Assembly: GCA_010093995.1 (NCBI GenBank)
Contig: ML992501.1
Span: 3,058,489 to 3,122,488 of the forward strand
Direction of reading: 5' to 3'
Source of the DNA: Elsinoe ampelina
Taxonomy: Eukaryota
Length of the DNA: 64,000 nt
The notes beneath the pieces are model-generated. The model saw nothing but the letters and a program-made list of their open reading frames with translations, was not told the origin of the DNA and searched no databases. Shown piece after piece: positions 28,814 through 43,238 of the stretch (the stretch's first letter is position 1; every line of letters begins with the position of its first letter). The translations under genes and the position numbers were made by a program.

Positions 28814-30831
28814 CTAGCGTCCGAATCCGAACCAGCCACGCTTCTTTTCCTGAGATGGTGTGGCTGCTTGTTCCGAAACCCCATTGACGGGGGCCTTCTT
28901 TTCCTCCACGACTTGTTTGGCTCTACCGGGATACTCCAAATAGTTGAAGGCAACATCGAAGAACAGTGGCTTGACGGGAATTGGCTCAATCTTCGGAGGA
29001 TAAGACACTAGGTTGGTAAGATCGATCGTCAGGCCTGGCTGAGGGTACTCATTGATCTTCTCGATTGTTGGCGCTGAGAACACCTTTGACTTGTTGGCGC
29101 TGGCCACTGCTTGTTGCTCGATCTGGTGCATCTCCGCGATTGCTTGATGTCGAATGATCTGGCCTTGTAGTTGCTTCTGCAACGCTCGGACCTGGTCATG
29201 GTGAATGTCGAGAGTCGGCGGTGATTGAGTACTCCTGGACGATTCCGGGAGGGCCGAGACTGCTTGCGTTGCTAATTTGCCAGCCCGAGACAGTAGAGCG
29301 AGTGCTTTGAGAGAGTCTGATAGCAGACTGTGAGAGATCGCGACATTCAGGCACCTAGCAAGTTAGCGTATTCCGACAGTTTGTGTGCCAAGTACTCACT
29401 TGAGAGCTTGAAAGTAGGCACGCTTGCCGTCAAGCTCAGCAATGAAGCCCGAGTCTCGGACCGCTCCACGTAACGACTTGACCGAATCGATGCTTTGGAT
29501 GGTCGAGTCGTACAAGACGAGTCGCTCTCTTAATCGTGCAAGCTTTCGCGATCGAGCTTCCTCCTTCTCTGGCCATGGCTTGCCGTCCCGACGTGGTCGC
29601 TTTGGCTTTCGCTGCTCCTGGTCTGGGAACGTTCGTCCATCATCTTCGCCTATCAGCACCCGGTTTCGTCCTACACGCCAACTAACGAGATCGTAATTGA
29701 TGGCCAAGCTGGATACTCGCAGATCCTGCATCCTTGAATCACCCTCGTCTGCACCTTCTTTCTCGAGCTCTTCCGTTGCTCTTCGATTCGCATCTGCCGC
29801 ATCTTGCCAAGCGATTAGAATATCGTCGTAGGCACCAGCCCGTTTCGAAGCCGGCGCGGAGGTATTGCTTTGTAAGAAGTCTTCTAGAGTCTTTTCCGCC
29901 ACAGCAGCCTGTGCAAGCGCTTGACCGATAGATGCATCGACAATGTTCGCGGTTCGGCCTCTCCAGTTGATCGACGAAGGCGCTTCACCAGTCGCCGCCG
30001 CAGCCTTTTGATCCTTGACAGGCTTATGCTCGGCAAATGCCTCCTCGTCGACCTTCTTGACAAGAGTGGTGAAGTCGCTCTCATCTTGTGGGTAGAACTT
30101 TAGTGCTATTGAGGGGACCGCGATTGTACGGGAGAGCTTCGCTTGATACGCTGCGTATCGTATTGTTGGGTCGATTGTGTTATTCAACAGATCTCTGAAC
30201 ACCTCCTTCTTGGTCTGGTGGTAAAGTGCGGCATACGTGATACGGGCGACAGAGTACTCGCGAAGGCACGGGTACCATCTCTCCTTGTTCGCAATATCCT
30301 CTCTAGACTTCTGACCTTCCGACTGCTTCTCAAACTCCAGTGTACCCGCGAGCAGGCCCTTGTATGCACGTGCTTCTATTATGTCTCTGTCAGAGCTTCC
30401 AGAGCCAGTTCGATCTTGTAGTAAGCCGAGAAGTGCATTCGCCGTCTTCGTGGCCTTCCCCAGTCTGGAGAGGATGTGATCTCGTGTATCTCCGGTCACA
30501 GGCTGTCCAGTGGATTCTTCGGACTTTGTCGATTTGATGTGCATGGCGTGAGCCCAAGCTCGTTCGGCAGTGAAGAGAAGGAGGTGGGCATTTCTGGGGG
30601 ACTGTCAGCGCGGAATCGGCAGTGCGATGACAATGCTTACTGATGATCGCTTTTGATGTTCTCAGCAGTGATATCGGCCTTCTTTTGGAATTTCGCGTTC
30701 TTGCCCGTCACCCGGCCGAGCTTTCGTCTGGTTGCGACCAGTTTCCGTGAAAGCTGTTCCCTGTATGATTTGTAGTCCCCGACCAGGAGTGCGCGGTCTC
30801 GCAGACCAATGGTCGTCTCGGAAATGTCCAT
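28814..30831 (-). CDS. SRP68: Signal recognition particle subunit SRP68
   Basis: MDI...GDYKSYREQLSRKL, LLFTAERAWAHAM, DPTIRYAAYQ, C-terminal PIPVKPLFFDVAFNY and GWFGFGR. Introns at 30640-30594 and 29399-29355. Confidence 0.92.
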
Positions 30832-31190
30832 GACGAGCTTGACTGCGCTCAATGGCAGCAGCGGTGGTGGAGCAAGCGATATGGTATGCGTGGGGCAGTC
30901 GGCGTAGGTGCGGGCAGAAGTGGCAATGACTCGCGGAGCACATGTCTTGGCAGAATGTTTTGCTTCAGAGAATCGGATCTGGATCTTGACATCAGCGCTC
31001 GGCAGATCTCAAAAAGTTCGTCCCTGAGATCCTTTCCCGTTGTCAAACTCACGCTCTACGGCCCCTCTGGAGCTTCATGGTCTACTTGTCACAGCTTGCT
31101 GGATGTATTGGATTTCGTTGAGTCCCTTCAGCAGCTGCTCTCGTTCTTGCCGCATTTCCTCAACTTCACCCATAGATTGCCTCTCGTGGC

Positions 31191-34100
31191 ATGCTTGAGA
31201 GAGCATCTGCATGCCTCGAGTCAAGCATCTGGTGCTCTCGAAATGCTTCAAAACGGACAAGGGGCAGTAAACGATTACTACACTCGGCCTTCTGGAGCCA
31301 TGGAGCGACATACCTCGATCTCTTGCCTTTCGCCTTCGATGCACACCGAAGTACTGTTCCAACCGCGGTAACATCACCCTCTTCGCAAGGGCATCCCGCC
31401 CCCCAGCGTGCGGATGTACCGTTTCTCGATTTTCTCTATCCCGCACAGGCGCTGGCATTCCTGTCACGTACCTTTGGTAGCTCCGCAGACCACCCACGAC
31501 GGCGACATGTTGTGGGCAGCAGACGGTATTCCTCCCTTCCTCGACCCAGCCACGCTCGAGACATTCGCATCGCTCAGCTCCGATCATTCTCACAACAGTC
31601 TCCGCTTGATGTGCTAGCCGAACATTCAGAGGACCCACTCGGGTTGGAGCTTGATGTCTCCAACCCAGATGCTGAGCAGGATGGTCATGCTATGGCTGTG
31701 GTTAAGCAAGGGAAAACGTCTCAGATGCAGCTTTCTCAACAGCATCAGAGGAAAGAGTCGGCCGAAGCAGACCGGGGGACACACAAAAGCACAAGCTTGG
31801 GAGCTTTCGAGGAGATCATCCGGAACCCTTCACCAGACACGCCATTACCTCGCGTGCGAGCATTATGGAATGTTCTGACTGACACGCAGAAGTCGAATGC
31901 AAGCCTGAAGCGATCTCTCCACCTCTGGTTGTCGAGTCGTACCCAACATGGAACCCGTTCAGAAGCTTGGGCGTGGTCGAAAGAAATTCTGAGTCAGATC
32001 AGTCCCGAGGAACGCAGTTCGACCGTATATCGCTCGGCGATCTCTGTAGCTTTGAAAGGATCGGACGTTACATTGGCGGAGACCCTTCTGCACGAAGCCT
32101 GTGCGCGAGGGTTGCGCAGCGACTTTGGCGCAAATTTACTGATGAGGCACCACTTGAGGCAGCGCAAGTTCGACCAGGCTGTGTCGCTGATGACCACTAT
32201 GCGGGACTATTCTACGTTAGTTGGGGAATCGGCCATCTACTACAAGACGTTCGAAGGAATCGAGGGAGCAGCATGGCACACTTCATGGCTACCGGCTCTT
32301 ATGCGGTATCTCAATGATCAAACATCTACTGGAAATCCTCTGGCCACGTTTCGGGAAATTTTCGCCCGGGTCGCAAGCCGCTTCCCAGGATGGATCGCTC
32401 ACAAGACCGGCGGTCAATTCAATGCGAGAGTGGTGGCATTCAAAAAATTTCTGGACGAAATGAAATTTAGACCATGGGCTACGCTTGCTTATGAAGCGAT
32501 GCTTTTTCGCCTGTTAAGCAATACCAAGTCCAGTCATAAAGAGCGGTTTAGCAGATTGACTGCACAACTTTGGGGCGAGTACATGAGAGTCCAGGGCGTC
32601 GGACCATCCAAGGCCCTGATGATGCAAATTCTTCAAGCTTGGGAATCGGACCGCTTACTATGGCGCAACATCAGGTACAAGGAAGGGGAGCCTGCATTGC
32701 ACCCGAAGCTTCTCCGCCTGGATTGGGAAAAGCATTTTGGAAATCTCGACCACATGGCGCGGGTCAAGCTCTCAGTACTTGCAGCTCGAGCTGGAGATGT
32801 TGCTGAAGTCGAATCTCTGGCCCACGGCCTCCTGGAAGGGCCGCGTCAAAATCATGATCCTGACTATTTCTGGACATATGTTTTCGTGCACGCCCGACGC
32901 CGGGATGCGGCAGCTGCTCAGGATGCGTTTGATCGGATCGTCAATGAGTTTCGGCTTCGCCCTAGCGTACAGACTTGGGATATGCTACTTCATGCCTACG
33001 ACCGAGCAGATGATCTAGATGGAGCATTGAGGTGTTTCAAGCACAGGCAAGCTGAACAAGTTAAGATCATGCCACAAAGCATTTCTTCATTGCTCAATCT
33101 GTACGCCAAGCTTGGCGATGCAGATGCCATCAAAGAATTGATCGACTACGCTCGCGAAATGAACGTCCCAATCGATACTTGGATGATGAACTCTCTCATC
33201 GTAGCGCATGCACAAGCAGGGCACGTGGACTGGGCAACAGAGACTTTCGAAGAGACCATAAAGCAAAGGAAAGCTGGCCAGATCTCAGGCTCGCTGCGTA
33301 TTCCTTTCAATAGCGTCCTATCTCTTCATGCACAACAGAAGAACTTCCCCGCGGCCATCTCGATATATCGACAGATGAAGACTAAGGGTATACCTTTTGA
33401 CGACCAATCTTACGCCTCCATGGTCATGGCCCTGTGTCAGCAACGACGTCCAGATTCAGCTTGGCGAATAGTCAACAAAGTCATGGCCAAGGAAGGATTC
33501 CAGCCTACCGCCTTTCATTACACTCAAGTCATGATTGGCTTTGTGAATACGAGAGAATATCGCTACGCCATCGACGTCTATCATAAAATGGAGATGGCTG
33601 GTATCAAGCCAACTATCGGAACCAAGGCGGCATACCTGAAAGCCAAGGCATTGAACGAGCATCTGTCGAAGCAGCATGACGAGCCCCTTCCGCATGAGCA
33701 GATCGAAGGCCAGGAAATTGACGATCCGCGACCATTGGACGACACAATCCGAGAGCTTCTGGATGCATTGGAGGAAGACGTAGAGTTCGGCGACAAGGAT
33801 TTTGGGTTGCGAGACATTCGTGTTGTAGAGGCGAAGACGTCGCTTTTCGAAACACTCATTCAACTACATGGCCGACGAAGGTGCTTTGACGCGGCTTGGC
33901 AGCTCTTTCATACCGCGACAAACTACGTGTCGGTGAAGGGTAACGAGATTCCACCATTCCGTCTCATAACAGCCATGATGTCTGTCTACTGCCGTGCAGG
34001 TGAGCACGAAGAAGTCGAACGCTGCTGGAACCTTCTTGTGCAAGAAGCAAATCGACGACGTTTGGTTCAATTACCGGAGCTTGCTTCCAAAGACCCAATG

Positions 34101-34871
34101 ACAGGTGTCACTGACACTGCCGAAGAATCAGCATCCGAAAGGCTGCTCGACTCTATCACCAATCATCCTCCCGAAGATGCCAGCCCACCAGCCTCAACAT
34201 CAGGACCTCGCATCTCGCCCCACCCGGCGCCATCCAAACGCTTCCTCCTCTCCGTTCCCTTCCGCTACCTCACACGCTCCCTCACCCAAAGCCCTTCCCT
34301 ACCCGCCTCCCGCATTTCCTCCCTCCTGTCCACACTCCTCTCCCTTCTCGACCAGTCCTACACCCTGGACCATAAGACCTGGAACACCCTCATCCAATCC
34401 CTAATGTCGCTTCACCCACCCCGCGTCCTCCTCGCCTACACCCTCACCGAGCGCTTCCTCACCCCCAGCTTCCCCGGATGGCGCTATCCCTCCCGCATCG
34501 TCGCCCTCGACTTCGGAGTGCAGAACAATTCCCGACGCGCGGAAGGGGTGGAATACATGGCCTACCCGCAGCGGTACGTGCGCGCCGGGGAACGACTACC
34601 CACCTACCGAACGATGGTGTACCTCGCTTCTGGGCTCTTGGAGTTGCGACGACGGGAGACAACGGGATGGGAAGCTGGAGTGCGCGAAGAGATGTCGAAT
34701 GGCGAGTTGCGGGGTCAGGTGGGGAGTGTAGATGCGGTGATGAGGAGGGCGCCCAAGACGGTGGCGAACGTGAGGGAATTGCCTATTGTGTACGATGGGT
34801 TGCAGAGAAGGTTGATCAGGGGAGGGGGAGAGGGGGGGAGGGGGGAGAGGTGGTATAGTGAGCAGGGATAG
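31191..34871 (+). CDS. Mitochondrial pentatricopeptide-repeat protein, Cya5/Pet309-like translation regulator
   Basis: 1226-aa ORF with N-terminal MLERASACL...HSAFWSHGA and FLDFLYP. Multiple PPR motifs (PSVQTWDMLLHAY, DTWMMNSLIVAH, FDDQSYASMVMAL, PTAFHYTQVMIGF). Confidence 0.85.
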   Translation: MLERASACLESSIWCSRNASKRTRGSKRLLHSAFWSHGATYLDLLPFAFDAHRSTVPTAVTSPSSQGHPAPQRADVPFLDFLYPAQALAFLSRTFGSSADHPRRRHVVGSRRYSSLPRPSHARDIRIAQLRSFSQQSPLDVLAEHSEDPLGLELDVSNPDAEQDGHAMAVVKQGKTSQMQLSQQHQRKESAEADRGTHKSTSLGAFEEIIRNPSPDTPLPRVRALWNVLTDTQKSNASLKRSLHLWLSSRTQHGTRSEAWAWSKEILSQISPEERSSTVYRSAISVALKGSDVTLAETLLHEACARGLRSDFGANLLMRHHLRQRKFDQAVSLMTTMRDYSTLVGESAIYYKTFEGIEGAAWHTSWLPALMRYLNDQTSTGNPLATFREIFARVASRFPGWIAHKTGGQFNARVVAFKKFLDEMKFRPWATLAYEAMLFRLLSNTKSSHKERFSRLTAQLWGEYMRVQGVGPSKALMMQILQAWESDRLLWRNIRYKEGEPALHPKLLRLDWEKHFGNLDHMARVKLSVLAARAGDVAEVESLAHGLLEGPRQNHDPDYFWTYVFVHARRRDAAAAQDAFDRIVNEFRLRPSVQTWDMLLHAYDRADDLDGALRCFKHRQAEQVKIMPQSISSLLNLYAKLGDADAIKELIDYAREMNVPIDTWMMNSLIVAHAQAGHVDWATETFEETIKQRKAGQISGSLRIPFNSVLSLHAQQKNFPAAISIYRQMKTKGIPFDDQSYASMVMALCQQRRPDSAWRIVNKVMAKEGFQPTAFHYTQVMIGFVNTREYRYAIDVYHKMEMAGIKPTIGTKAAYLKAKALNEHLSKQHDEPLPHEQIEGQEIDDPRPLDDTIRELLDALEEDVEFGDKDFGLRDIRVVEAKTSLFETLIQLHGRRRCFDAAWQLFHTATNYVSVKGNEIPPFRLITAMMSVYCRAGEHEEVERCWNLLVQEANRRRLVQLPELASKDPMTGVTDTAEESASERLLDSITNHPPEDASPPASTSGPRISPHPAPSKRFLLSVPFRYLTRSLTQSPSLPASRISSLLSTLLSLLDQSYTLDHKTWNTLIQSLMSLHPPRVLLAYTLTERFLTPSFPGWRYPSRIVALDFGVQNNSRRAEGVEYMAYPQRYVRAGERLPTYRTMVYLASGLLELRRRETTGWEAGVREEMSNGELRGQVGSVDAVMRRAPKTVANVRELPIVYDGLQRRLIRGGGEGGRGERWYSEQG

Positions 34872-35193
34872 GAGGTGGGACTAGGTTCGGTCGACGGAAA
34901 GTGTCGGGGAAGTAAGATAAGACGGTGATGAATGACAGATGCATGGGAGGAGAGATGAGTGTGAGCATGTTGTACATATTGTAGTATACTCTCCGCATTA
35001 TATTAGAGCGAGTGTGTTTGGATATGAACAAATCGACGTCTACTGTGATTACGAGACTCTGCGTGTTGACAACCTCTTACCATCCCTGCCCCGTTACCTC
35101 GCCTCTTCAACCCTCGCACCATTACACAGGCAGACACAGCACTGCGGCTACCAGGTCCCTGCCACCGATCCACCGCTCTCCTCCTGCAAACCA

Positions 35194-37322
35194 CTACTCA
35201 CTCCTCTCCCCCTCCACCGCACCAGCAACCTTTGGCCCCTCCCTCCCCGCCCTCCTCCTCTCCTCCTCCTCCTGCATCTCCCTCAGCTTCCCCAACCTCG
35301 CACTGGGCAACCACTTTTCCTCAGGCGTGACCCACCAAGTGACGATCCCGAAGACGGTGATGGCCCCGAAGATGACACACGAGTAATTAAACGTCTCGGC
35401 CGTGACGGGGAAGAACAACGGACTGAACAACACCCCCGCGAGGTACGTGTTCCACACGAACGCGATGAAGGTCATGGGGCGGGACCACCGTCCCAGGTTC
35501 CACCGCGCGTGCTTGAAGTCGTGGGGCGTGATGAACGTCCTCCCGAAGCAGATGAGCGCGTAGCCCGTGATGGTGGGGACGCCGGCCGCGGAGACGAGGG
35601 AGGTGAAGGCCACTGGGGACGGGAGGATGGTGCAGAGGAGCAGCGATGCGACGGCTAGCATGAGGAGGATGGCGTTGCGGGGTTCGCCCTTGGGTGTGAC
35701 GCGCGAGATCCAGCCGGAGAAAGGGAGGACGCCGTCTCGTGCGACGGCCCAGATGAGACGCGAGGCGGCGACGCCGGCGACGGAGGTGTTGAAGATGTGG
35801 CCTAGGACTACGACTACTATCATGGGGATGTGGCCTCGTTGACCCATTGTGAGGGAGTAGAGGAGGACGAAGGGCTGTGGGGCGGAGAAGGAGTAGAGGG
35901 TGTCGAGGGAGGGGGAGCAGAAGAGGAAGAGGATGACGGTGGGGATGCCGAGGAGACCGGCTGCGAGGGCGGAGAAGAAGATGCCCTTTGCGGAGTTGAT
36001 GTTGGCGCTTTGGGTTTCTTCTGAGATGTGGCCCGATGCTTCGTAGCCCACGAGGATGCCGGCCGTGACGTAGTAGGAGAGCATCCAGTTCCAGACGGGA
36101 GGGGCGCCGGTTTCGTTGTAGGTCTCGAGGAGGAAGGATTTGTCTTGGAAACCGTAGGAGCGGGAGACGGCGATGGGGAGCCAGATCATGTTGAGGAAGA
36201 AGTCGAGAAGGACGATGCCGGTGGCGACGCGGAAGACGTAGCGGTAGATCTTGGGAGGGATGAAGCACATGCCGATGGAGATGAAGCAGATGCATTCGGC
36301 GACGATCCACTGCACGGCTCGGAAGCGGATGTTGTTGACGTCGGTGGGGAAGTCGTATTCGAAGACGGCGATTTCGGACAGGATGTAGTTGGCGGCACCT
36401 TGAGAGTTGGATGAAATGAAGGTGGTCCAGGCGGTGCAGCTCCACCATGCTACGACGAAGCCGAAGAGACGGCCATACTTTTTGCCACCAGATGCGGCAG
36501 CCCAGCTGTAAGAGTTAGATGTTGGTCATCTCTCGTGTAGGAGGGTACTTACAAGTAGATACTTCCTGCGGCGGGAAGTGCAGAGCAGACCTCAGCAATG
36601 ACGGCAGCGGTGATGAAGACGAATACGCAGGTCACCAGGAAGGAGGACCAGTAGGCGAGAGGTCCTCCAGCTCCGACACCGATGGAGAAGGTGACCCTGA
36701 TGCCACCGACAAAGTAGAGAGCGGCTGCACAGTGTGAGCTTAGTTCCAATACTTGGTTGCTGACACAAACCGAATGCCGAGGCAAAGCTCTCGAACAGCT
36801 TCCAGTGTCGATGTAAGGCCTGCAGTTGTCAATATCACGTCGGCTGGATTGTCATGTAATACTCACTTGTTTATAGCCCAGCGCATTCTGAGCTGTGTCA
36901 ATAAGCTGTTCTTCCTTTACAAGGGGGAAGATAGGCTGGATCTTTTGGTCATAGCATCTCCTTACGCGCTCATGAAAGCGATCAAGTTCAAGCGGTGATT
37001 TCTCAGCCTTTGTCTCTTTCGAGACGCAGACACCCGCGTGCCATGAATGTTATTTCGTCCCTCCACCAGCAGCAGGTCCACCTGGAGATGACACTGGTGG
37101 AGAAATCATAGCCTGACCAATACATACCTGTGCGCGAAAGAGATGTTGCTTCTACCAGTGGATCTGACCATCCTCGATGGCTCATCTTACCAGGTACTGC
37201 TCGTCCGAGTCCATGCTCTGTGTTTCGGTAAAGTCGCTCTGCAGCGGGTTTTGGGGCTTGACGAGATCCTCGTTGACATGGGCCGATTTGGACCCATTGC
37301 GGTGGGTGACACTCGACGACAT
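35194..37322 (-). CDS. APC-superfamily permease, Thi9-like (likely thiamine or thiamine-precursor transporter)
   Basis: Exons 37322-37191, 36887-36867 (NALGYKQ), 36819-36771, 36724-36553 and 36505-35194. Motifs AEVCSALPAAGSIYFW, GYEASGHISEET and SRLIWAVARDGVLPFS. The TPP aptamer in intron 1 supports the thiamine link. Confidence 0.88.
36950..37045 (-). promoter_or_regulatory. TPP (THI-box) riboswitch aptamer in intron 1 of the permease
   Basis: Minus strand reads CAUGGCAC-GCGGGUG-UCUGC-GUCUC-GAAA-GAGAC-AAAGG-CUGAGA-AAUC-ACCGC-UUGAA-CUUGAUC-GCU-UUCAUG-AGC-GCGUAAGG-AG-AUGCUAUG. P1-P5 pair, and the UGAGA, CUUGAU and GCGUAAGG consensus elements are present. Confidence 0.93.
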
Positions 37323-38326
37323 GATGGTTTGCCTGAGAGGTTGAACAAGATTGGAAAAGAAAGGTGCAAATAGATTGCAGCCACGCGAGCTGTTCTGCAG
37401 GGATGTGAAAGAGGTATGGAGGGGTAGCGAAAGAAATTTGCAAGTGACCCAAGTTGTGCAGCGTGGGGGTACTTTGGAGAAACCGCCGATCACGTCAGTA
37501 AGGACAAATTTGAGCCTCACGACTGATGTGTCGGTGATTAACACGAATGTAGACTCTCGCGTCCAAGCCAGCTGGTCTAGTCAAGATGCTAAGTTGTGTC
37601 CCCTTCATGCCCGGGCCTGTGATGTTCTATGCAGAGGTCGTTGTTGATCTCGATGCGAGGCATCTCTGCCGAGATCACGTGGTCTGCACCTACCAGCAGT
37701 TCGCAATCTGCCGTCAGCACAATATCAGGCCGCATTCTTTCTGCGATGTTGTCATTTGTCCTGAGTAAAAGTCAGGATTGTCAGATCTAATCCTCTATCT
37801 CGTGCGTTCCAAGAAGGATGAGCAAAGTCAATAGCCTTGATGCTGCCTTCATGTCAACCGGGAGCGACGGCAAACAGGGCAGGCTGGCGGTGGGAATGAC
37901 GTTGACGCAGCCACAATCAACACAACTTGCAACCTTTTGTTTTTCCACACGTCCGGCGCTCTTGATGCTGTTATCTCAGTCCAAGCCATATCCGATTGCG
38001 ACAAAAGAGGTGTGTAGGCTTGTGCCTCTCCGTCCTCTTTTTTGCATTCACGAGCCCCCGTTTTGAAGCAGGGATCTGAGAAAAGATAACGACTCCTTCG
38101 CCCATTCCAAAACACGGCCTTCCTCTGGTACAACAGAAGCCTTGGACCGCTACTTGTCCTTCAAAGATAAGGTCCCGCCATTTCTGCTTTCATGGGCAGC
38201 TACACTGCCTTCTGGAACACATCGTCATCCAGCGCAAAGTCCTGGGCGACCGACTTCTCGAGAGTCTCTCGAGTTGACCATAACAACAACACCGCCATGC
38301 TACGGTGAACGCCCGCAGGGATCGAC

Positions 38327-40654
38327 ATGGTTCATATTCTTACCCACCGGACCACATCAGATTCGCGTGTACCGACGCGTCGACAGACAAATGCCAGCAA
38401 CACCAAGCATAGAAAGCGTTCTCCCGTCAAAGCAGTCCTCAAGGGTGCTAAATCTACAGCCGCCAGCGCCGCCTCAAAGCTGAATATCATCAATGTCAAG
38501 CCGTGGACCGATGGCGACGTTACTGACTGGTGGTTCGCCGGGACTGCCGTGCCCCTTCTCGCTGCCACCATAGGACCACTGGCCAATGTCCTCTCCATTG
38601 CAGCCCTGGTCACACAGTGGCGAATGTGCTTGGTGGGCGGTACCGAGCCAGCCGCTTGCCTGTATCCCGGCGACCCATCCATACTTCTCGACGATCTCTC
38701 GGGCTCGACGTTTGCTGATCCGAGATGGTGTTATTACCTCAACCTCGTCTCTCTCATCTTCGGTGTTGTCGGTAATGTTTTTTTGCTGTTCAACTTCACA
38801 GGCTTCGTGCGATACATCGTGGCACTTCCAGTGACGATCATAATGTGGTATCTGGCGACCGGCATACTTATTGCGATCACTGTCTCGATGGAGATCCATG
38901 TCCCGCCTATACGTCCACAACAGACCTATAGTCAGGGTTTCTGGTACGCTATTCTAGCCGCAGTAATGTATCTGATCGCTTCGATGCTTCTGATGGTCAA
39001 CATGCTCGGCTACTTCCTCGGCCACTACCCGCAGGAGTTTGAGCTCACTGAGTCGCAGCGTACTCTTATCCTCCAAACTATGCTCTTCTTCATATGGTTG
39101 GCATCAGGTGGTGCTATATTTGCAAAGGTGGAGCAGACATATGGCGATGGCAACACCAATTGGTCGTACGTCAACTCACTATATTTCTCCGATGTCACCA
39201 TCCTCACCGTCGGCTTTGGCGACTTGTCTGCTACCTCGTCAGCTGGCAGGGGGCTCGTCTTTCCATACTCGGTCGGTGGCACCATCATGCTGGGTTTGGT
39301 CATTTCCTCCATCTCACGATTCGCAACTGAACTCGGCTCGGAGAAGGTCGTCGATAAGCGTCGAGAACGCACTCGCATTCGCACCGTCGATAGAGTCGTC
39401 TCATCACCGGAAGAGCTTCATCGCTTACGAGGAAATGTCCAGTCACCTCGGATTGGGTCAATTTCCGGCCCTTCCGATCCTGTCAACAACTCCGCTCGAC
39501 TTCGCATCTCCGAGCCGCAGAATCTGAACAAGACGAGTTCGAACGCTTCGGCCCTGACTTTTCTTCCCAAACCCATTCGACCCAACCAAAAGCCACGACC
39601 GCTTCTGCTTCGAGATGAGAAAGACCGCTTCAAAACTATGCGCCGCATCCAACTCAAGACCCGCAAGTACAAGCAATGGACTGGCCTCATGCTTTCCATC
39701 TTCTCCTTCTGTGTCCTGTGGCTACTGGGCGCCCTGGTCTTCTTCTACGCGGAATCACAGACTCAAGGATTGACTTACTTCGAGGCTCTCTATTTCTGCT
39801 ACGTCTCGCTACTCACTATCGGATACGGAGATCTAGCGCCAAAGAGCAACATTGGCCGCCCTTTTTTCGTGCTCTGGAGCTTGATTGCTGTTCCAACCAT
39901 GACCATTCTCATCAGTGCCATGGGGGATACGGTCATTCAAGGCTTCAAGAAGGGCGTTGAGAAAGGAGCCGAAGTAACGATCCTACCACGAAGAGGAGTG
40001 ATCGGGGACATACTAAAGAAATCTGGCATCATCGGCTGGATAGAGGATAGAAAGGCAAGGAAAGAACTGGACGAAAGAAGAGAAAGAGGTTTCGATGTTG
40101 GTCCTGACGAGGAGCAGACGGTAAAAACCGAGGAGGCTGCGAACGAAACGGTAGACCCTGCGGAGGATACAACGACTGCCGGTGAGGATGACCGTGAGCC
40201 CAGCGAATTCGAGCTAGCTACCCGGCTAGCTCTAGCAATACAGCAAGTTGCAATGGATCTGCAGGAATCACCACCGAAGCGCTACGAGTACGACGAGTGG
40301 CTTGAGTTTACTACACTCATCAAATTCACCAACTACGGAAGTGACCGGGCAAAGGACGACAATTCGGAAGAAGAAGGATTGATAGAGTGGGATTGGATCG
40401 GCGAGGATAGTCCAATGATGGCGAAACAGTCCGAACCAGAGTTTGTGTTGGACAGGCTTTGTGAGAGCATGAGTAGATATATCAAACGGCAGGCATCAGG
40501 TCATAGGAAGGAAGAGAAGGACACCGGAGCAGGACTCATTGAGGCCGGTGGAGCTATCGTGGAAGAGGACGAAGATGTTACGAGTATGAGGAGGGTCGCT
40601 ACGAGCGGCGAGGATACCCAGTCGGACACGGATACAGCTGTGCCGCCATCTTGA
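38327..40654 (+). CDS. TOK1: Outward-rectifying two-pore-domain potassium channel
   Basis: 775-aa ORF with multiple TM helices and two pore loops, TILTVGFGD and LLTIGYGD. N-terminal PLLAATIGPLANVLSI motif. Confidence 0.92.
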   Translation: MVHILTHRTTSDSRVPTRRQTNASNTKHRKRSPVKAVLKGAKSTAASAASKLNIINVKPWTDGDVTDWWFAGTAVPLLAATIGPLANVLSIAALVTQWRMCLVGGTEPAACLYPGDPSILLDDLSGSTFADPRWCYYLNLVSLIFGVVGNVFLLFNFTGFVRYIVALPVTIIMWYLATGILIAITVSMEIHVPPIRPQQTYSQGFWYAILAAVMYLIASMLLMVNMLGYFLGHYPQEFELTESQRTLILQTMLFFIWLASGGAIFAKVEQTYGDGNTNWSYVNSLYFSDVTILTVGFGDLSATSSAGRGLVFPYSVGGTIMLGLVISSISRFATELGSEKVVDKRRERTRIRTVDRVVSSPEELHRLRGNVQSPRIGSISGPSDPVNNSARLRISEPQNLNKTSSNASALTFLPKPIRPNQKPRPLLLRDEKDRFKTMRRIQLKTRKYKQWTGLMLSIFSFCVLWLLGALVFFYAESQTQGLTYFEALYFCYVSLLTIGYGDLAPKSNIGRPFFVLWSLIAVPTMTILISAMGDTVIQGFKKGVEKGAEVTILPRRGVIGDILKKSGIIGWIEDRKARKELDERRERGFDVGPDEEQTVKTEEAANETVDPAEDTTTAGEDDREPSEFELATRLALAIQQVAMDLQESPPKRYEYDEWLEFTTLIKFTNYGSDRAKDDNSEEEGLIEWDWIGEDSPMMAKQSEPEFVLDRLCESMSRYIKRQASGHRKEEKDTGAGLIEAGGAIVEEDEDVTSMRRVATSGEDTQSDTDTAVPPS

Positions 40655-40988
40655 GTTTGTACGAGATAGCATGGCAAGCCTAATAACGAGACATGAATTA
40701 ACTCCAACACCATTAACAACTGACAGCTGCGAGACCTATCGTTCATGTGGACACCCCGCTGTTGACTCCCTTGCCAACAACCTCGGGCTTTTCTGAAGTC
40801 CGGGCCACTTGCCCGGGCATTGGACCTGCCCGACCATGCCTGACGACACCATTTGACAGTTCGTCGAACATGTCTCGCTTTTTTCCTACAGATACGAACG
40901 AAAGAGCCTCGAATCAATTGTTCGCTTACATTTGACCACCTCCAAGTTGTGGCTGGTATATAACGTTGTGCGGAGTCCAAGACCGACC

Positions 40989-43238
40989 ATGTCGGCTCCA
41001 TCTCAGTTCCCTACCTCATCAAATACACATTCAATATCATCAAAACCACCTCGCATCCTTGCATGTGTCCTCTGCCAGCAGCGAAAGATCAAATGCGACC
41101 GCCAACATCCATGCGGCCACTGTGTGAAGGCCAGAGCACAATGCGTGCCAGGCGGTCTCGTCACCAAGCCGCGACGGCGCAGATTCGCAGAGAAGGAATT
41201 GCTCGACCGTCTCCGCCACTATGAAGCACTCTTGAGAGAGCATAACATCTCGTTCCAACCAATGCACCCTGACCACCCACCCGATGTGCTCTCGGCCAAG
41301 GAGGCCGATAGCATAGATGGCGACGTACAGGACGATGAGACCACAGAAGCTGATGTGGAGAAAGCTGGAAAAGTCAAAGGCGCCACACCATCTTATGAGG
41401 CCAAGTATGGACAATGTCGGTAATTGCAGTAGAAGTGATGCTGACACGGATCAAAGGAGCTTCTGGAGAGAGCTGAACACAAAAGTGGAATTCCCACAAT
41501 GGTCTTGGTAGCTTTACTGACTTCTAGCAGGACGGAGACGCCGACCAAGACACAGATACATCTACCGAAGAAGCCGAGAGCGCTGTCAAGATGACATGGC
41601 TCAAGATGTTCGAGAGCAACGAGCACCTCCTCTTCGGCACACCACTCATCACCGCTGACCTGTCCATGTATCACCCCGAGCAACTGCAGATCTTTAGGCT
41701 ATGGCAGATCTACCTCGACAATGTGGATCCCATGATCAAGGTCACGCATACTCCTACCCTCCAGCCACGCATCATCAATGCTGCTCTCGACTTGCGGAAC
41801 ATAGCACCGCCGCTGGAAGCACTCATGTTTGGCATGTACTGTATGGCAGTCTCTAGCATGCCAGATGGACAAGAGCAGCAAGCATTCGGAGCGACCAAGA
41901 GCGAATTGCTCACCAATTATCAATCTGGCTGTCTGCAGGCCCTCATCAAGTGCGAATTTCTAAGAACCAACGACCTTGAAGTGCTGATAGCTCTCTTTCT
42001 GTACCTAGTGAGACCGGCCCATCCCCAGTTTCTTGAGGAATTAGACTAATATACCTCAGTTGTCAGCCAGGCCACGGACAGATCCAAGATCTCTGTCGCC
42101 ATTACTCGGAATAGCTGTTCGAATAGCTCAACGTATGGGCCTCCATATCGAAACCATGAACACCAAGCATTCCGCCTTCCAAGCTGAAATGCGGCGCCGA
42201 GTATGGTGGGCTCTCTTATTCATCGACACCCGTGTCAGCGAACAGGGCGAACAAAAGACAGGTCAAATGACACCGACCTGGGACTGTGCGGTACCTTGCA
42301 ATGTCAATGACTCTGACCTTCATATCGATATGAAGAACCGTCCGACTGCTCAAGCACCCATCTCAGAGGCAGTCTTCACTGTCGTGCGAAGCCGCATCTT
42401 TAATACTGTCAGGACGTTGGATTGCCATCTCGACTTCACAATACCAGCTCTGAAGCTCATAGCCAAAGCTATGAAGCCTGATCGACCGAGGGATGACTAC
42501 CAGGAGATCCAAGGACTCAACCGCGGCATCGAGGAGGTGTATCTCCAACACTGCGACAGCGAGAACCCGGTCCACTTCTTCACCATCTGGACCGCACGCT
42601 ACTTCTTAGTCAGAGTCCGCCTTCTGCACTACTTTGCCCACTCCTCACAATCGACCACCAAATTATCAGACACTCAGCGGGATCAAGGAATGGCGCATGC
42701 TATTGCCATGCTTGAATGCGATACACGAATGGCCACGAATAGCTCCATCCGCAAATTTCTGTGGTTCAACAATCTCTACTACCCGTTTCCCGCATACTTT
42801 CAACTGATACAAGAGCTCAAGACAAGACCCACGGGCGCTCAAGCAGCCAATGCCTGGCAAGTCATGGACGAGAATTACTCCACCAGGTTTCGCGAGGGCG
42901 AAGATGGCGTGAAGCCCTTTCACAGAGTTCTCCCGAAGCATATACTGGCAGCCTGGCGAGCTCGAGAGAGATTGGCCGCCGACTCTGGAGAATTACTTGA
43001 CATGCCAGACATGGTACGAGATCTGAAACGACGTCGAGATGGTGATACTCCAAAGTCGGACGGTGCTCCAAGCAGGACTGATAGCTCGTTCGAGGATTTC
43101 GACCTGAACAGCTATATCATACCAATGGACATGGGCATGTCGATGCCGAATTTTGACAACTTGGACTTTGATGGTATGGACTTTTCGACGCAAGCTGGTG
43201 GAGGGGTGATTGATTGGGCTGCTGATACTTGGAGCTGA
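40989..43238 (+). CDS. Zn(II)2Cys6 fungal transcription factor with fungal-specific TF middle domain
   Basis: ACVLCQQRKIKCDRQHPCGHCVKARAQC; LWQIYLDNVDP; AVRIAQRMGLH...EMRRRVWW. Introns at 41405-41456, 41485-41527/41530 and 42008-42059. Confidence 0.93.

Follow-up and report, generated by a model that had tools for sequence, protein, structure and literature searches.

A probable thiamine pyrophosphate riboswitch acting on 5' splice-site choice in the first intron of a Thi9-family permease gene of Elsinoe ampelina

The first intron of an APC-family permease gene of the Dothideomycete Elsinoe ampelina contains an aptamer of the thiamine pyrophosphate (TPP) class, and two 5' splice sites upstream of this aptamer are joined to one common 3' end in transcript contigs, the proximal of the two giving rise to an mRNA with a premature stop codon. 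The gene is located on the minus strand of a stretch of 64,000 nt (assembly GCA_010093995.1, contig ML992501.1, positions 3,058,489 to 3,122,488), here termed the window, whose internal numbering is used throughout. The element is probably a functional TPP riboswitch of the THI9 or amino-acid-transporter class that, in intron 1 of this Thi9-family permease gene, serves as an OFF switch by governing which 5' splice site is used. An earlier reading of the DNA letters (the original prediction) had reported the aptamer and proposed import of thiamine or a precursor under feedback repression by TPP. Its observation is confirmed, and sequence and transcript evidence, within their reach, support its interpretation.

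TPP aptamer in intron 1 and its conservation

The aptamer extends over positions 36941-37047 (minus strand), as delineated by the Rfam match, the predicted fold and covariation among orthologues, and has a short P3 without P3a. The TPP riboswitch model RF00059 aligns end to end (model positions 1-105) with this segment, yielding 48.2 bits and an E-value of 1.8e-8 in a search of 501 nt, which by linear rescaling amounts to about 2e-6 for 64 kb. This search had been named by the original prediction as a check; by its E-value the match is significant, whereas its score is lower than the curated gathering score of 54.3 bits. For this reason, the default scan at gathering score reports no TPP match in the whole 64-kb window. 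According to the cmscan alignment, the deficit in score is due to the missing P3a hairpin and an insertion in P3.

On the minus strand, P1 is formed by CAUGGCA (37045-37039) with UGCUAUG (36956-36950) and P2 by GCGG with CCGC, while P3 bears the hairpin GUCUC-GAAA-GAGAC and is accompanied by CUGAGA; P4 consists of CUUG/UAAG and P5 of CGCU/AGCG, closed by the loop UUCAUG. Each aptamer element listed by the original prediction is found there, on the strand and in the places it had assigned. The minimum free energy (MFE) fold of 116 nt displays the P1-P5 architecture (-33.2 kcal/mol, z -2.2, 4 of 200 shuffles equal or better), and the centroid fold likewise yields the P1/P2/P3 and the P4/P5 arms.

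Related loci were obtained by a profile search of metagenome contigs with the large exon, which provided 145 confirmed relatives, the best 80 of which (L001-L080) were used. A simple motif search for the aptamer core matched 23 loci, and 19 of these were examined for the core motif. Matches in L006, L010, L048 and L054, as well as a rough one at L033 that was later refined, were regarded as chance and dropped by eye before seeding. The seed alignment A2 (plain MAFFT) comprises the window and 16 of the 19 loci, the exact duplicates L014 and L028 and the 5'-cut L065 having been left out; its P1-P5 structure was written from the window sequence, and a covariance model was then built from it. In these 17 sequences, 88.4 % of the cells are paired as compared to 33-45 % with partners slid, and compensatory changes are present in 12 of the 26 pairs.

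Besides the window, the covariance model matches 55 of the 80 loci, in all cases on the gene strand; the aptamer precedes the large exon by 284-693 nt (median 469). Of the loci, 56 have 650 nt or more of upstream sequence, and 48 of these carry the aptamer in the same place as in the window. The other eight all share at most 54 % protein identity and may be paralogues. An extended alignment (A3, 49 distinct rows) shows 89.1 % of cells paired versus 32-45 % with partners slid and compensatory changes in 18 of the 26 pairs, values to be read in view of A3 having been fitted to the covariance model and thus being biased toward its structure. None of 500 shuffles reaches the observed covariation, and the compensatory changes support the three-way P1-P5 architecture. 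Variation among orthologues includes GCGG/CCGC, GCCG/CGGC, ACGG/CCGU and UGGG/CCCA for P2, and GCUU/GAGC, GCAU/AUGC, GUC/GAC and AGG/CCU for P5.

The motifs CUGAGA (J3-2), ACC..GAAC and CUUGAUC...GCG.AAGG (P4/P5) are invariant or nearly so in both alignments, UGAGA being kept in 48 of the 49 distinct rows. Contact of such conserved TPP-aptamer motifs with the ligand is known from the literature (PMC5882874); the segment at 36941-37047 is predicted to bind TPP. The UUCAUG loop of P5, which the original prediction had considered atypical, is actually the commonest loop of the class (10 of the 49 distinct orthologous aptamers); the canonical UAAU-type loop is present in 10 of the 49 as well. The gathering score of RF00059 is reached by 5 of 51 uncut orthologous aptamers (3/40 plus 2/11).

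Apart from the aptamers, a sub-threshold match to U1 RNA was encountered in one distant locus (L074, 39 % identity) at positions 1612-1782 of the minus strand (37.3 bits versus a gathering score of 69.5, E-value 5.6e-6), about 600 nt upstream of the aptamer.

Alternative 5' splice sites of the permease gene

The coding part of exon 1 (37191-37322, minus strand) starts with ATG at 37322-37320, comprises 44 codons ending in ...MDSDEQYL and is covered by transcript contigs. The remaining gene spans 35194-36887 of the same strand, with exon 2 at 36887-36867, exon 3 at 36819-36771, exon 4 at 36724-36553 and exon 5 at 36505-35194, and terminates with the stop codon TAG (35196-35194). Joining the exons by their coordinates yields an open reading frame (ORF) of 561 amino acids, residues 1-559 of which align at 94 % identity to protein P0001 of Elsinoe fawcettii, annotated as 'amino acid permease-like protein' (563 amino acids). 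The next-best matches are from E. australis (88 %) and Myriangium (77 %), followed by many Dothideomycetes. The APC or amino-acid-permease fold is recognized by Pfam PF13520 (AA_permease_2) with an E-value of 1e-38 and 133.8 bits against a cut-off of 27, and three homologues (P0097, P0101 and P0110; 54-56 % identity) carry the source name 'Thiamine transporter thi9', in agreement with the host gene that the original prediction had assumed.

Intron 1 possesses two 5' splice sites. Site 1 (GUAAGA, 37185-37190, minus strand) is weak, with no U at position +6, and its joint 36887>37191 gives the productive mRNA. Site 2 (GUAUGU, 37122-37127, minus strand) conforms to the consensus, and its joint 36887>37128 retains 63 nt (37190-37128) that include an in-frame TGA (37182-37184, minus strand) as the third codon past exon 1 (GUA AGA UGA). 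Both joints share the 3' end at 36887/36888 in the transcript contigs; this intron end (36888-36905, minus strand) consists of a CAG 3' splice site preceded by UUGAC, which from its consensus may serve as the branch point. Translation of the site-2 form ends after 46 codons, as does that of the form with retained intron.

Nine public runs from three studies cover the stretch, and four of them (X1, X3, X4 and X6) were mapped on positions 36400-37500. The runs are not on record as RNA; their contigs were taken as RNA-derived because they skip introns at four GT..AG joints. The three small introns (47, 46 and 47 nt) are all of the GT..AG type, and their joints are present in all or most of the four runs. 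A skip of 303 nt (36887>37191, GT..AG) was detected in run X3 at a contig depth of 243.8, confirming intron 1 as 37190-36888; the 46-47 nt of the other introns also bear out its earlier description as about six times the local norm. A skip of 240 nt (36887>37128, GT..AG) was detected in X1 (depth 2.6), X4 (10.1) and X6 (8.7), i.e., in two studies, and the joint in X4 is part of a single contig of 2220 nt covering the mRNA. Contigs with unspliced intron 1 are present in X1, X3 (depth 20.2) and X6 (3.7). Across the four runs from three studies, two alternative 5' splice sites are therefore used in vivo, the proximal one being non-productive. Feedback repression by TPP would be expected to employ just such a design, with alternative 5' sites of which one leads to a premature stop.

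This layout is conserved. The end of exon 1 can be recognized by the peptide MD.DE.YL in 15 sequences, i.e., the window and 14 related loci. In all of them site 1 is the weaker donor (GTAAGA in 12, GTATGA in two and GTAAGC in one), and an in-frame stop codon lies between weak site 1 and strong site 2 in 14 of the 15, including the window.

Two further observations concern the 5' part of the gene. The first donor together with the following bases (37181-37190 in the window) reads GTAAGATGAG in nine of the 15 sequences (the window and eight loci), a conservation exceeding what a splice site plus stop codon alone would need. Further upstream, the contigs of X1, X3 and X6 stop at 37389-37398, that of X3 showing adapter sequence past 37391. 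The contig of X4 continues beyond 37500 and shows two differences from the window, G>T at 37456 and an insertion of 5 nt behind 37468; another strain or an alternative start further upstream may account for this.

The permease gene is flanked by genes for SRP68 (29396-30604, minus strand) and a large PPR-repeat protein (31176-34871, plus strand) on one side, and for a two-pore-type K+/ion channel (38309-40654, plus strand) and a fungal transcription-factor domain protein (42045-43238, plus strand) on the other. Among these neighbouring genes (29396-43238), no link to thiamine was found.

Alpha element and proposed switching

A 13-nt alpha element (AUCUCUUUCGCGC, 37132-37144, minus strand) has its 3' end 4 nt upstream of the site-2 GU and is complementary to alpha' (GCGCGUAAGGAGAU, 36956-36969, minus strand), a segment made up of the P5 and P4 3' strands together with J4-1, the junction to P1, and common to the aptamer fold and the alpha pairing. 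The resulting duplex has 13 bp and one bulge (-22.4 kcal/mol), and none of the dinucleotide shuffles of the upstream region is as good (0/100 and 0/60). In the unconstrained MFE fold of the whole intron, the alpha helix is present and extended outward; P2 and P3 stay, while P1, P4 and P5 are broken. Complementarity of P4/P5 to sequence at the proximal 5' splice site, as in an NMT1-like platform, is thus present, adjacent to the site rather than overlapping it. A comparable element (at most 3 of 60 shuffles as good) is found in 20 of 42 distinct sequences including the window, at a distance of 0-33 nt 5' of the strong 5' site, and changes in concert with P5, as in GCGCAUA/UAUGCGC, CGCGCUC/GAGCGCG and CCUUCUGCGC/GCGCGGAAGG.

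Between site 2 and the aptamer, a stable local hairpin (CUCCACCAG ... CUGGUGGAG, 37061-37102, minus strand) is formed in both the MFE and the centroid fold of the intron. A second complementarity, of UGAUUUCUC (37108-37100) to GAGAAAUCA of the aptamer, was set aside, as this stretch forms the local hairpin in the intron fold.

Since these parts agree with the way fungal TPP switches are reported to work, the element is read as an OFF switch. At low TPP, alpha (37144-37132) would pair with the 3' strands of P5 and P4 (36969-36956) and thereby block closure of the aptamer; strong proximal site 2 (37127) would then be situated at the foot of the long-range helix and be looped out, such that weak distal site 1 (37190) would be joined to the 3' splice site, yielding the mRNA of the full permease of 561 amino acids. 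At high TPP, the folded aptamer would retain P4, P5 and P1 and free alpha, whereupon site 2 would win. The mRNA would then retain the 63 nt with the in-frame UGA, encode a peptide of 46 residues and probably undergo nonsense-mediated decay. Exon depths amount to about 270-500 in X3, the run with the productive joint, and to about 8-15 in the other runs; this contrast would look like the ON state versus the OFF state with decay.

Several points weigh against this reading. The assignment of the two isoforms to TPP levels is drawn across runs of unrecorded growth conditions and is accordingly conditional. Contigs display presence only and drop minor forms, their depths are poor measures, and the missing 303-nt joint in X1, X4 and X6 as well as the missing 240-nt joint in X3 are not evidence of absence. 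In 22 of the 42 distinct sequences, no element better than 3 of 60 shuffles was detected upstream (250 nt, 18-nt windows), and either the alpha pairing may not be class-wide or this search may have been too narrow. Alpha also adjoins site 2 with a gap of 4 nt and does not overlap it. The RF00059 score of 48.2 bits does not attain the 54.3 bits for family membership, and a possible loss of function has been considered for thi9-type switches, for want of experiments, in the accessible part of PMC8786325. The relation of the permease to Schizosaccharomyces pombe Thi9, finally, is suggested by source names and literature.

The cargo imported by the permease is most likely thiamine or a close precursor, as suggested by the riboswitch and the family names. 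It is rather unlikely that regulation proceeds as proposed while the cargo is another one, e.g., a precursor of thiamine (hydroxymethylpyrimidine, HMP, or its thiazole part), an amino compound tied to TPP-dependent enzymes or a different vitamin. Such a cargo would be compatible with a substrate assignment that draws on the riboswitch and family names only, with the neighbouring genes, which provide no thiamine context, and with the statement of Mukherjee 2018 (PMC5882874) that riboswitch-linked transporters are not assignable to one ligand. Against it stand Thi9 of S. pombe, a member of the same family for which, according to Donovan 2018 (PMC5997356) with reference to Vogl 2008, thiamine transport has been demonstrated, and the homologues at 54-56 % identity that bear its name.

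Less probable still is a riboswitch that is real and responds to TPP by other means than the alpha pairing, i.e., via the branch point or 3' splice site, via intron retention or via protein factors, with alpha having a minor or no role. The uncovered GU of site 2, the 22 of 42 sequences without an element beating the shuffles and the unspliced contigs in three of the four runs would agree with this, and in case of NCU01977 Li and Breaker (PMC3597705) described it as unclear why alpha favours site 1 and considered protein factors possible. However, the alpha element of the window is highly non-random (0 of 160 shuffles), its helix is part of the unconstrained MFE fold, and in 20 sequences it stays beside the strong 5' site and changes along with the 3' strand of P5.

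That the aptamer is a decaying relic, or the splice forms constitutive noise in a gene that TPP does not regulate, is very improbable: the Rfam score, the account of thi9-type switches as lacking experiments (in the accessible parts of PMC5997356 and PMC8786325) and isoform differences among runs that could stem from strain or library would fit this, but a relic would not retain covariation, whereas here the core motifs are invariant, compensatory changes affect 18 of 26 pairs across 49 distinct orthologues, and both the position of the aptamer (48 of 56 loci) and the layout of weak site 1, stop codon and strong site 2 are kept.

Relation to known switches and significance for the THI9 class

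The proposed OFF switch is not a new idea, since fungal TPP riboswitches of the THI9 or amino-acid-transporter type have been in print since 2018 (PMC5997356, PMC5882874; also PMC11683625). According to Donovan 2018 (PMC5997356), THI9 is one of the five groups of fungal genes in which Moldovan 2018 found riboswitches, THI9 orthologues in Pezizomycotina bear riboswitches, and one of the three known TPP switches of Neurospora crassa is also under threshold. Mukherjee 2018 (PMC5882874) described the amino-acid-transporter class and stated it to be absent in Ascomycota; PMC11683625 named the class TPPsw-AA and reported all groups but the sugar-transporter class in Ascomycota. Dothideomycete members of the class, or the alpha pairing, may already be contained in Moldovan 2018 or in the supplements of these papers. 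In a full-text literature search, no paper joining Elsinoe and riboswitch was found, and a search for later experimental work yielded nothing relevant.

The element of E. ampelina shares with the THI9-type or TPPsw-AA switches the TPP aptamer in an intron of a Thi9-related APC gene and the predicted control of splicing (PMC5997356, PMC5882874, PMC11683625), and represents a new species instance of them. In contrast to the absence from Ascomycota stated by Mukherjee 2018 (PMC5882874), it is common among the Dothideomycete-like loci analyzed here. It also fits every feature listed for 'Type III' in the same paper, i.e., an internal intron of 200-400 nt (here 303 nt) with two donors (37190 and 37127), a stop codon in between (TGA, 37184-37182) and the aptamer downstream of the second donor. 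'Type III' is, as presented there, a purely predicted model, whereas here both isoforms are present in transcript contigs.

In NMT1 and THI4 of N. crassa (Cheah 2007 via PMC3597705), P4-P5 nucleotides block the proximal 5' splice site in the absence of TPP, and TPP binding frees this site and leads to non-productive mRNA, as proposed for the permease gene. Differing from these OFF switches, the intron studied here lies within the coding region, the non-productive form contains an in-frame stop codon instead of the upstream ORFs of NMT1 and THI4, and the complementary element is located just 5' of the splice site without covering it.

More closely related in this respect is NCU01977 of N. crassa, in which a covarying alpha element loops out proximal 5' splice sites (PMC3597705). 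NCU01977 and Candida DUR31 resemble the permease gene in being transporter genes with an internal intron in the coding region (PMC3597705; PMC5997356), in having a conserved and covarying alpha near, not on, a 5' splice site, by which alternative sites are looped out, and in yielding alternative products with stop codons. In case of NCU01977, P1 nucleotides are engaged over a distance of about 500 nt in an intron of 650-900 nt with at least four 5' splice sites; here, alpha' is the 3' strand of P5 and P4, about 165 nt are bridged, and the intron has two 5' splice sites. The encoded proteins also belong to different families, SSS in NCU01977 and DUR31 and APC here.

It is conceivable, though rather doubtful as a whole, that the THI9 class has its own conserved platform, a hybrid of those of NMT1 and NCU01977, with a deliberately weak first donor (GUAAGA, often as GUAAGAUGAG, which includes a stop codon) followed by a second donor of consensus sequence, the latter being looped out yet left uncovered when alpha pairs with the P5/P4 3' strands; that the class is far wider in Dothideomycetes and other Pezizomycotina than surveys state, about nine of ten aptamers being below gathering score; and that no THI9-type switch had its two isoforms documented in vivo before the present contigs. 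At gathering score, RF00059 scans miss most of the class, with 5 of 51 aptamers passing, and this may be the reason for its published absence from Ascomycota.

While the general picture of riboswitch control in eukaryotes remains unchanged, useful additions are the transcripts of both isoforms, the conserved and covarying alpha pairing and the systematically sub-threshold Rfam scores. Transcript-level support is thereby added for a riboswitch class described as having no experimental tests in the accessible parts of PMC5997356 and PMC8786325. For the crop-scab fungi, a gene annotated only as 'amino acid permease' obtains a functional label, as thiamine-regulated and probably thiamine-importing.

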